64,000 nucleotides of DNA, taken from a virus. Taxonomy: Duplodnaviria; Heunggongvirae; Uroviricota; Caudoviricetes. The notes below the pieces were generated by a model, which was not told the DNA's origin, made no database searches, and worked only from the letters and a program-made list of their open reading frames with translations. Below, piece after piece: positions 44,266 through 44,942 of the stretch (position 1 is the stretch's first letter; each line of letters begins with the position of its first letter). The stretch lies in the IMG/VR virus record IMGVR_UViG_3300032245_000624; one strand, 5' to 3'. Both the position numbers and the translations under genes were made by a program.

Positions 44266-44294
44266 TGCAAAAAGAAACCCGCCGAAGCGGGTTC
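44266..44294 (-). terminator. Rho-independent terminator ending the tmRNA precursor (CCCGCUUCGGCGGG plus UUUCUUUUUG)
   Basis: GC hairpin plus U-tract. Confidence 0.65.
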
Positions 44295-44547
44295 TGGTTG
44301 TTTAGGTTACAAGGTAAGTCCTACCCCGTGGTGTTCGGTTTTTAAGCGAACGCTGCCTCAGTTGCAGCCACTTTGCTTCCGCCGAAACGGAAACCTTTAG
44401 CGACTGTTACTTTGACACCAGTTTGTGTATTTGCTTTTGCATTTACGTTTTTTGCGTCTACGGCCGGGAATCCCCAACCCTACGGTTTCTGCCTTACCGT
44501 GCTGTCCACTTATCTACTCTTTGCCCTGTCGAAACCAGGTCACCCCC
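44270..44547 (-). ncRNA. ssrA: tmRNA coding piece (5' acceptor strand GGGGGUG, ACCUGGUUUCGACAGGG, tag reading frame)
   Basis: RNA GGGGGUGACCUGGUUUCGACAGGGC resembles the E. coli tmRNA 5' end GGGGCUGAUUCUGGAUUCGACGGG. The tag ORF starts GUAGAC-GCA and ends AAFA-UAA. Confidence 0.7.
44345..44455 (-). other. Putative tmRNA tag reading frame (resume codon GCA at 44455-44453, stop UAA at 44344-44342). It encodes AKNVNAKANTQTGVKVTVAKGFRFGGSKVAATEAAFA
   Basis: Frame chosen by alignment to the E. coli resume context UAGUC-GCA. It is unusually long (37 aa), so the end point is uncertain. Confidence 0.4.
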
Positions 44548-44629
44548 ATCATAAGAAGACATGTATACATATTACAGTTATTAGTGATACTATACAAATA
44601 AACTCATATGCTTTCATAATATCTCCTTA

Positions 44630-44694
44630 TGGTGGAGGTGGCGGGAGTCGAACCCGCGTCCAGAACACTTTTCCTTCCGCTTCATACAGCAATA
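44630..44694 (-). ncRNA. ssrA: tmRNA acceptor piece (T-arm GCGGGUUCGACUCCCGC, acceptor 3' strand CACCUCC, ACCA end). It lies upstream of the coding piece, so the gene is permuted
   Basis: 3' sequence GGACGCGGGUUCGACUCCCGCCACCUCCACCA is near-identical to the E. coli tmRNA 3' end. CACCUCC pairs with GGGGGUG of the downstream piece, including G3:U70. Confidence 0.7.
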
Positions 44695-44700
44695 ACTTAC

Positions 44701-44729
44701 AGTATATATTTATTGGCTATCGTCGTCAA
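44701..44729 (-). promoter_or_regulatory. Promoter TTGACG-17-TATACT for the tmRNA precursor
   Basis: Plus cgtcaa at 44724-44729 and agtata at 44701-44706. Confidence 0.5.
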
Positions 44730-44942
44730 GTCTAGGGAAGCCCAAAGTAAATTTTGTCAATGGATCCACCTTCTTCAACATCACAGCGCCTGACGTGGTT
44801 TTGCACACTTGCAAAAGATCACCTTCCTCAAACCGGATCTTCTCTAACGGAAGCTCTTCGTCTAAGATAATGTACTGTCCGTATTCAATGTCAATGATGT
44901 AGTCGAAGTGTTTCATGCAAGTATTTACACACTTGCAAAATT

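Follow-up and report, generated by a model that had tools for sequence, protein, structure and literature searches.

Does a tailed phage encode a complete two-piece transfer-messenger RNA (tmRNA), and does the segment between the two pieces, which is missing from the mature molecule, encode something of its own? Both questions are raised by a locus in IMG/VR virus record IMGVR_UViG_3300032245_000624 (Caudoviricetes), which we analysed as a single stretch of 64,000 nucleotides (nt), hereafter the window. Positions 44900-44100, read on the minus strand, show a tmRNA gene that is complete and circularly permuted (44743-44266; Table 1), and there is hardly any doubt that it is a phage-borne two-piece tmRNA gene (ssrA) of the betaproteobacterial type. 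The reading that we favour overall, and hold to be likely, is that of a functional two-piece tmRNA with a coding intervening sequence (IVS, or spacer) and a long tag, encoded by a gene that is a mosaic.

A permuted tmRNA gene in a phage genome

In the whole 64-kb window ARAGORN called a single gene, namely a permuted tmRNA (44251-44722) whose tag is 32 residues long. The Rfam model for permuted tmRNAs (RF04321, tmRNA_permuted) scored 112.1 bits against a gathering threshold of 47 (E=5e-21), and both this model and that of the betaproteobacterial form (RF01850, beta_tmRNA) matched end to end. The one-piece model RF00023 was not among the gathering-level Rfam matches, which come from a tool that suppresses lower-scoring overlapping matches of the clan of beta_tmRNA. 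The two-piece gene that the initial annotation had called from the sequence alone thus stands, with both permuted models above gathering and no standard one-piece outcome. The order of the elements is opposite to that of a one-piece tmRNA: the T-arm, the acceptor 3' strand and the CCA come first, and the acceptor 5' strand and the mRNA-like domain follow downstream, all on one strand. As had been proposed, the acceptor strands GGGGGUG and CACCUCC form a perfect 7-bp stem between the pieces, with a G3:U70 pair and a 3' ACCA. The pieces are further joined by helix P2, of which the outer 5 bp (UGCUG/CAGCA) and the inner 3+3 bp (UGU-CUG/CAG-GCA) are formed in the Rfam alignment.

The gene has signals of its own at both ends, and consensus scans recovered the promoter and the terminator already predicted there. 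The promoter aligns to the promoter columns of the Rfam beta_tmRNA model (UUGAag...UAuAAU), and TTGACA-17-TAnAnT boxes stand at the equivalent place in three related loci (L093, L134 and L346, in the numbering introduced below); in the window the -35 box sits in the final codons of an upstream open reading frame (ORF; 45129-44710). The terminator aligns to the terminal hairpin of beta_tmRNA, and most relatives have a comparable GC-rich hairpin followed by a U-run. Two features weigh against the assignment to the betaproteobacterial type: the RF01850 score of 86.5 bits is marginal against a gathering threshold of 84, and in the middle 4-bp segment of P2 three of the four pairs are non-canonical in the Rfam alignment. 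The earlier statement that both halves are near-identical to E. coli SsrA held for one of them, with 30 of 32 positions identical in the 3' half and no blastn match to E. coli in the 5' domain.

Table 1. Features of the tmRNA locus in window coordinates
Feature	Position	Strand	Details
Promoter, sigma-70-type	44701..44729	-	-35 TTGACG 44729-44724; 17-nt spacer; -10 TATACT 44706-44701; consensus match 10/12
Acceptor piece	44630..44696	-	5' end inferred at about 44696-44691; RF04321 alignment and ARAGORN
P2, 3'-side strands	44691-87; 44667-61	-	UGCUG; UGU-U-CUG; RF04321 alignment
T-arm	44657-44641	-	GCGGG/UUCGACU/CCCGC
Acceptor 3' strand	44640-34	-	CACCUCC, then ACCA 44633-30
IVS (spacer)	44548..44629	-	82 nt, 24% G+C
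IVS micro-ORF	44549..44617	-	22 codons plus UGA, MKAYEFICIVSLITVICIHVFL; AUG 44617, UGA 44551-49
Acceptor 5' strand	44547-41	-	GGGGGUG, then GGUUUCGAC
Coding piece	44275..44547	-	acceptor 5' strand, GGUUUCGAC, P2 5' strands, pseudoknot 1 (PK1), tag ORF, stop hairpin, 3' pseudoknot, terminator; RF04321 and RF01850 alignments
PK1 region	about 44500-44455	-	within coding piece
Tag ORF	44342..44440	-	resume codon GCA 44440-38; 32 codons, AKANTQTGVKVTVAKGFRFGGSKVAATEAAFA; stop UAA 44344-42; ARAGORN
3' pseudoknot hairpin	44326-44314	-	GGUA-GGACU-UACC, then CCUUGUAACC; within coding piece
Intrinsic terminator	44266..44294	-	GAACCCGC-UUCG-GCGGGUUU, then CUUUUU; hairpin 44294-44275; terminator scan

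Relatives of the locus were gathered from viral contigs by means of two neighbouring proteins together with a pattern for the tag region, which gave more than 200 loci (designated by L-numbers), and permuted tmRNAs among them were recognised by ARAGORN and by our own parsing. A permuted tmRNA is present on over 100 related contigs in IMG/VR, where contigs with relatives reach 383 kb. Across about 90 unique relatives, the acceptor stem and the T-stem covary: the acceptor strands occur in at least ten fully complementary combinations, throughout which G3:U70 is invariant, and the T-stem occurs in 12 sequence types and is paired in 88/88 unique sequences. The stem of the 3' pseudoknot hairpin covaries as well (GGCA/UGCC, GGCU/AGCC, GGUU/AACC), and the hairpin loop pairs with a downstream segment that changes along with it (GCUA/UAGC, ACUA/UAGU) to form the pseudoknot.

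A further helix between the pieces, GUAAGU in the acceptor piece with ACUUAC in the coding piece, had been suggested in the initial annotation. Both hexamers are present in the window, yet they are not a conserved pair: among 64 unique relatives, both were found in one (the window itself), GUAAGU alone in 4, ACUUAC alone in 9 and neither in 50. We rejected this helix, as ACUUAC makes up the loop and 3' strand of the covarying 3' pseudoknot hairpin. GUAAGU, for its part, abuts the -10 box, between it and the likely transcription start, and because it directly follows that box it is probably for the most part not transcribed, which clashes with the promoter called in the same annotation. The true inter-piece helix is P2.

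The expectation that such a gene would be very unusual in a phage was overturned. A distant blastn search with the locus matched the T-arm region in 24 GenBank phage records, with only about 70 nt alignable, and six of the 24 were taken for comparison. ARAGORN and Rfam identified a permuted beta-type tmRNA in Stenotrophomonas phage Marzo (L001), Alcaligenes phage QDWS595 (L002), Xanthomonas phages BUDD (L003) and JGB6 (L004) and Acinetobacter phage BUCT628 (L006); Bacillus phage G (L005) has a one-piece tmRNA gene. Several of the permuted tmRNAs in GenBank have no annotation or share their place with 'hypothetical protein' or 'tRNA-Leu' calls. A one-piece tmRNA is the form present in Xanthomonadales and Acinetobacter hosts, and these data suggest that phages have a beta-type tmRNA lineage of their own, whatever the tmRNA type of the host. 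Buchholz et al. (2022) counted 133 unique tmRNA structures in 402 of 18,146 phage genomes, 53 of them two-piece (PMC9004378), and a tmRNA database paper of 2025 lists 79 phage tmRNAs and introduces RF04321 (Rfam 15; PMC11915505). Taken by itself, a two-piece tmRNA in a phage is a further example of a catalogued kind.

Two side observations were made in the GenBank phages. In two unrelated phages, QDWS595 (L002 1789-1865) and G (L005 1103-1176), the tmRNA is adjoined by a tRNA whose anticodon, UUA, would read UAA, and which is thus predicted to be a suppressor. In phage Marzo, ARAGORN called an extra one-piece 'tmRNA' (L001 1252-1569) that overlaps a tRNA-Pro and a tRNA-Leu; this call is almost certainly a false positive made up of the real acceptor piece and the tRNAs upstream.

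The open reading frame in the spacer

The initial annotation had placed a hydrophobic ORF of 22 codons, led by a Shine-Dalgarno (SD) sequence, in the 82-nt spacer, and its coordinates were confirmed. The SD sequence, AAGGAG at 44628-23, comes directly past the CCA and lies 5 nt upstream of the AUG, and the stop codon ends 1 nt before the predicted RNase P site (G44547, the first position, G1, of the coding piece). The product is predicted to be a hydrophobic peptide with a single helix (grand average of hydropathy 1.98). The same segment also has the structure of a tmRNA spacer: its ends, UAAGGAGAUAUUAUG and CAUGUCUUCUUA, pair and extend the acceptor stem, it closes with UGAU before G1, and in the minimum-free-energy fold of the precursor the acceptor stem and the closing helix of the spacer are continuous.

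Is this ORF translated? Several properties of the window's own spacer weigh against it. With the ATG given, the frame stays open in 13% of shuffles of the window spacer (p about 0.13), and T-rich sequence gives hydrophobic codons by default. In the family of the window peptide, in which changes are few, the proportion of synonymous differences (pS) is 0-0.25 against 0.04-0.21 for non-synonymous ones (pN), with pN/pS of 0.3-1.4. The SD sequence and the AUG lie inside a predicted 14-bp closing stem stacked on the acceptor stem, and the last codons of the ORF are also constrained by that stem. All this would fit an ORF that is an untranslated by-product of an A+T-rich spacer with pairing ends, in which UAAGGAG mimics an SD sequence and UGAU supplies the stop. 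Such a by-product would also account for the (A/U)AAG past the CCA and the UGAU before G1, both of which occur in non-coding spacers and in the bacterial beta_tmRNA consensus, and it would agree with what protein databases returned: the 22-24-aa spacer peptides were not in a collection of 15 billion proteins, and PHROGs and Pfam held no match for the small spacer peptides. Several of the longer spacer ORFs described below had no match in PHROGs or Pfam either.

Comparison with other loci tilts the balance towards translation. Six further variants of the window peptide were found (seven in all), every one of them open over 22 or 23 codons: MKTYEFICIVSLITVICIHVFF in L361, L365 and L380, MTKTPYAIVVILLIVFVCIHVFL in L346 and L358, and one each in L378, L379, L227 and L377. 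The change in length is an indel of three nucleotides, while the spacing between SD and AUG shifts by 1 nt, which counts against an untranslated by-product. A metagenome scan returned just 3 close relatives. The spacers of most relatives are non-coding hairpins that start with (A/U)AAG and end with UGAU or UAAU, and a subset starts with UAAGGAG/A followed by AUG; the (A/U)AAG start and the UGAU or UAAU end are common to almost all relatives. We compared spacers that had been collected blindly. A pattern that required neither an ATG nor an ORF (CCA-UAAGGAG...UU[AU]UGAU-GGG) gave 38 unique spacers, and 36 of the 38 have a complete ORF of 21-26 codons, with the AUG 3-11 nt past GGAG and the ORF running exactly to the terminal UGA, 1 nt before G1. 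The layout claimed for the window thus recurs widely. The encoded peptides fall into about ten families, in all of which a hydrophobic helix comes after a short polar N-terminus. In a second set, gathered without reference to the spacer (about 65 unique spacers, after removal of three artefacts), all 18 spacers with an SD sequence and an AUG have an ORF of at least 20 codons, so that none has a shorter one; a single one of these ORFs stops more than 20 nt short of the spacer end, and the others finish nearer to it or beyond it. Shuffle tests, one per family, gave a Fisher combined p=2.5e-14.

Purifying selection is strong in the sister families of the window peptide. In the MNDDL family, pS is 0.2-0.8 against a pN of 0.02-0.17, and in the MDTGY family the values are 0.65 and 0.11; between the MNDDL peptides of L174 and L214, 12 codon changes are synonymous and 1 is non-synonymous. 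Other spacers carry larger cargo in the same slot. The 268-nt spacer of L364 encodes a thioredoxin (PF00085, E=4e-21) with the same SD sequence and stop, that of L310 (248 nt) encodes a PGDYG-family protein, and that of L225 (474 nt, in the gene at 8566-9274) holds two ORFs, one of 34 aa that is hydrophobic and one of 112 aa with no family match; all three genes are Rfam-confirmed permuted tmRNAs. Annotation pipelines already record the longer spacer ORFs as 'thioredoxin 1' or 'hypothetical protein'. Together, these data suggest that the spacer ORF of the window is probably translated, as far as sequence comparison can indicate, and our guess is that the product is a small membrane peptide. 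The untranslated by-product is a real but distinctly less probable alternative.

Some further observations concern the spacers of relatives. Ten unique spacer ORFs have no stop within the spacer and continue beyond it for 27-81 nt, in the 5' domain of the tmRNA (L257, L325, L241 and L290, of the MFENWHW... family; L223 and L244; L168 and L240; L042; L367); one example, which finishes in ...DGPAMVSTG, ends at the conserved UGA in P2. It is possible that such ORFs, once cut by RNase P, become non-stop mRNAs and hence substrates of their own tmRNA. Three apparent spacers of 706-756 nt were rejected, as the 3' end of an upstream tRNA-Met happens to pair with the tmRNA 5' strand. In two of these loci the tRNA-Met (L193 3753-3829 and L224 2688-2764) precedes the coding piece of the tmRNA by about 700 nt, the tmRNA 5' strand can pair with its acceptor 3' strand, and a cold-shock-protein-like ORF (MVVGKVKWFNDAKGFGF...) separates it from the tmRNA gene; L195 has the same upstream arm, where ARAGORN calls no tRNA. 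A scan of bacterial contigs for TCCACCATAAGGAN{4,10}ATG gave at least 120 matches, which appear random, and none of the matches listed is linked to a tmRNA or tRNA.

Tag frame, maturation and genomic setting

A frame of 37 codons had been assigned to the tag in the initial annotation. The conserved resume site gives 32 codons instead, and the GCA five codons further upstream that had been taken as the start is followed by an in-frame UAA in L089. The tag is nevertheless atypically long, as had been noted: the commonest tmRNA tag length is 10 aa (PMC11915505), and in a scan with the tag-region pattern the window's tag proved to be a member of a family of long tags, with dozens of different sequences of 22-34 residues in relatives. 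These tags begin with A[KN][AT][NS]T, and their C-termini vary (ALAA, ELAA, LAV, FAV, LLAA, LVA(A), AFA). The closest to the window are AKANTQSGVKVTVGKGFRFGGSKSARTEAAFA in L089 and L091 (32 aa in L089) and AKASTTESAVKVTKARGFRFGGARVAAADAAFA in L093 (33 aa), which share the layout GFRFGG...AAFA. The 17 nt that encode GFRFGG, GGUUUCCGUUUCGGCGG at 44384-44400, are identical in the window, L089 and L093, third positions included, and the flanking codons vary; this stretch could be under constraint at the RNA level within the tag region.

Could the true tag be a short one at the end of this frame, with translation resuming near 44368 (GCU or GCA) to give about AATEAAFA, and with the upstream 24 codons serving as untranslated structure? 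The tag columns of RF01850 do align to just the last 8 codons, on GUGGCUGCAACUGAGGCAGCGUUCGCUUAA, and treat about 102 nt upstream as an insertion, which weighs against a long tag, and the long tags of the L031/L134 type end in 10 residues like those of a canonical short tag (AIDGEFALAA). Yet RF04321 places the resume site upstream, and the resume context GUAAAU+GCA, found at 44446-44438 and conserved in all long-tag relatives, is missing before the downstream site. In all long-tag relatives the distance from the GCA to the stop in the loop is a multiple of three and the frame is open, across 13 lengths of 22-34 codons. Between the window and L089, pS exceeds pN along all 32 codons (0.35 and 0.12). 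The stop itself is embedded in structure: the UAA of the window lies in the loop of a hairpin, GUUCG (44351-47)/CGAAC (44337-33), with a compensatory change to UUUCGC/GCGAAA in L089 and L093, and a predicted hairpin loop holds the first in-frame stop in 55/63 unique relatives, a set in which the tag takes 15 different lengths between 10 and 34 codons. We consider the 32-codon frame very likely and the short tag unlikely.

On the favoured reading, a single precursor would be transcribed from the TTGACG/TATACT promoter to the terminator. RNase P would cleave 5' of G44547, with U at -1, and 3'-end processing would trim the upstream part to the CCA at 44630, leaving two RNAs, the acceptor piece (about 65 nt) and the coding piece (about 270 nt), held together by the 7-bp acceptor stem and P2. 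Charged with alanine through G3:U70, the molecule would act with host SmpB on stalled ribosomes, and translation would resume at GCA 44440 to add the 32-residue tag ending in AAFA. Either the precursor or the spacer cut out of it would serve as template for translation of the spacer ORF, a step that we infer from the anatomy of the locus. Because the SD sequence and the AUG are sequestered in the closing stem, initiation is probably limited, and would be confined to the time before the closing strand is transcribed or to opening of the stem; because both pair with the last codons of the ORF, translation would compete with folding and processing of the precursor on one molecule.

Some points weigh against a functional tmRNA of this kind. 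Precursor processing, alanine charging, SmpB dependence and tagging are ascribed to the window gene by analogy with the tmRNA family, and the tag ends in AAFA, not in the canonical LAA. A tblastn search of the window with E. coli SmpB as the query returned only noise (E>=5); no SmpB gene having been detected in the window, function would depend on SmpB from the host.

It is quite improbable, and a little more so than the short tag, that the two pieces are transcribed separately, with a promoter inside the spacer driving the coding piece and the ORF being a small gene between two RNA genes. A promoter-like ATGAAA-17-TATAGT (9/12) does lie in the spacer at 44617-44589, but it is weak, falls inside the ORF and is not conserved, the spacers of close relatives being wholly different. 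The spacer ends pair and stack on the acceptor stem, as in a single precursor, and a terminator scan found no terminator between the pieces. Two-piece tmRNAs characterised so far (Caulobacter) derive from one precursor, which also counts against separate transcription.

The window is that of a phage, with rIIA/rIIB at 47309-50315, a PHROG ATPase and nearly all genes on one strand. The genes within about 5 kb of the locus encode a hydrolase, a phosphoesterase, a glycosyltransferase, an AAA ATPase and rIIA/B, and there is no integrase among them. The hydrolase gene (43669-44253, minus strand; 194 aa, alpha/beta-hydrolase fold, PF12697) starts about 13 nt past the tmRNA terminator, and this synteny is kept in many related phage contigs (L007-L086, at the equivalent position); elsewhere the tmRNA lies downstream of the hydrolase gene. 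Three very large ORFs at 1596-18553 on the minus strand, of 1827, 1236 and 2141 codons, presumably encode virion or injected proteins of a large phage; the ORF of 1827 codons has He_PIG Ig-like repeats, and that of 2141 codons gave a sub-threshold match only.

It is highly improbable that the element is instead a relic without function, a decoy for SmpB or a displaced attachment-site (att) fragment of a host ssrA, the last of these an alternative raised in the initial annotation. Such readings would suit the absence of a detected SmpB gene, the non-canonical tag C-terminus and the precedent of mycobacteriophage DS6A, whose tmRNA consists of the tRNA-like domain only and inhibits host tmRNA (PMC4131195). 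Against them, the gene is intact from promoter to terminator, with both halves, the tag frame, the stop hairpin and the 3' pseudoknot in place; no integrase is nearby, and the position upstream of the alpha/beta-hydrolase gene is syntenic in many related phages. The acceptor stem, T-stem, stop hairpin and 3' pseudoknot covary in relatives, which speaks strongly against a relic or an att-site fragment.

Mosaic genes and known systems

Comparison with two relatives indicates that the window gene has a composite history. Against L089, the 5' tail is 88% identical, the T-arm 21/21 and the coding piece 87% (over 303 nt), but the acceptor strands match at 15/19 positions and the spacer is unrelated, being 97 nt long and non-coding. 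The pattern is reversed against L361, with 73% in the 5' tail, 17/19 in the T-arm and 74% in the coding piece, but 19/19 in the acceptor strands and 80/82 in the spacer; L361 has a canonical short tag, ANDSQFALAA. By its sequence, the gene of the window is a recombinant, with the acceptor stem and spacer from one tmRNA lineage and the remainder from another. An exact-pattern search of viral contigs for the window's T-arm and acceptor strand, 60-90 nt and its 5' domain gave 0 matches, a combination that is unique there because the gene is mosaic. When the 10 kb surrounding the locus were compared with GenBank phages by megablast, a 54-nt stretch of the T-arm was the sole match, and with the rIIA protein as query no isolate exceeded 45% identity. 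Elsewhere, the MNDDL spacer is found with several different acceptor stems and tags, and L223 and L251 have the same tag yet differ in the presence of a spacer ORF. The spacer, sometimes with its flanking acceptor strands, therefore seems to move between tmRNA genes, and because the permuted gene has both acceptor strands next to the spacer, a single short recombination tract keeps them matched. The mosaic thus shows how permutation of a gene lets both acceptor strands travel together.

We lean, if only narrowly, towards a broader view in which the spacer of many uncultured, mostly large or jumbo phages is a dedicated and swappable expression slot. UAAGGAG would be its ribosome-binding site and UGAU its stop, its cargo would range from peptides of 21-26 residues to thioredoxin and two-gene inserts, with some non-stop cargo. 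In the same phages, the new C-termini of the 22-34-residue tags suggest that tagged proteins may take another path than the canonical one through ClpXP, and long tags would offer natural variants for probing what a tag does beyond recruiting ClpXP. The precursor of a stable RNA would double as an mRNA, its coding sequence fitted exactly between the CCA 3' end and the RNase P site. A ribosome-binding site within the processing helix would set translation of the cargo against maturation of the rescue RNA, which makes the locus a testable system for coupling between translation status and tmRNA supply. Spacers of this kind would also be a source of unannotated phage membrane peptides of 21-26 residues that gene callers overlook. 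Literature searches, incomplete in coverage, returned no description of SD-led spacer ORFs or of the long-tag family, and both appear to be undescribed.

Among known systems, the betaproteobacterial two-piece tmRNA (RF01850) is the closest in plan, with the same gene order: P2 3' strand, T-arm, acceptor 3' strand, CCA, spacer, acceptor 5' strand, P2, PK1, tag, 3' pseudoknot and terminator. The promoter position, the AAGG past the CCA, the CCUUGUAAC loop motif and the terminal hairpin match as well. The window gene differs from it in being phage-borne, in its spacer, which is 82 nt long and coding where the consensus spacer is about 35 nt, and in its tag, of 32 aa as against about 10-14 aa. Permuted tmRNAs occur likewise in the genomes of lytic phages, namely the Stenotrophomonas Menderavirus phages (Marzo, Moby, Mendera), QDWS595, BUDD/JGB6 and BUCT628. 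These GenBank genes are not close to the window in DNA, and the beta-type examples that we retrieved differ from the window in their shorter tags (10-14 aa) and in the lack of an SD-led ORF in the spacer. The OM43 phage Melnitz and the pelagimyophages also carry permuted tmRNAs, the Melnitz gene being alpha-type with a glutamine riboswitch (PMC9004378).

The tag and the peptide each have counterparts of a general sort. As for the tag, the long ssrA tags of Mycoplasma and Mesoplasma, of about 27 aa and ending in ...AFA, are reportedly degraded by Lon (work attributed to Gur and Sauer in 2008); they resemble the window tag in length and in the ...AFA end, and are unrelated in sequence and lineage. 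The window peptide is of the same general type as the Ibs and TisB type I toxins, KdpF and MgtS, which are similar in size (about 20-30 aa) and consist of a single hydrophobic helix after a short polar N-terminus; it differs from them in having no sequence similarity and no evident antisense RNA partner, and in sitting within a tmRNA precursor.

Finally, tmRNA genes are known to house other sequences. Some permuted tmRNA spacers hold a tRNA-Ala gene or a repeat element, and some tmRNA genes are split by group I introns with ORFs for homing endonucleases (PMC11915505). What these genes have in common with the window is that a segment missing from the mature tmRNA houses another gene. In the window, however, that segment is the permutation spacer, which would be excised by tRNA-processing enzymes and not by self-splicing, and in place of homing endonucleases the cargo of such spacers consists of diverse small proteins, among them membrane-type peptides, thioredoxin and a PGDYG-family protein, with an SD sequence that directly follows the CCA and a stop that ends 1 nt short of G1.

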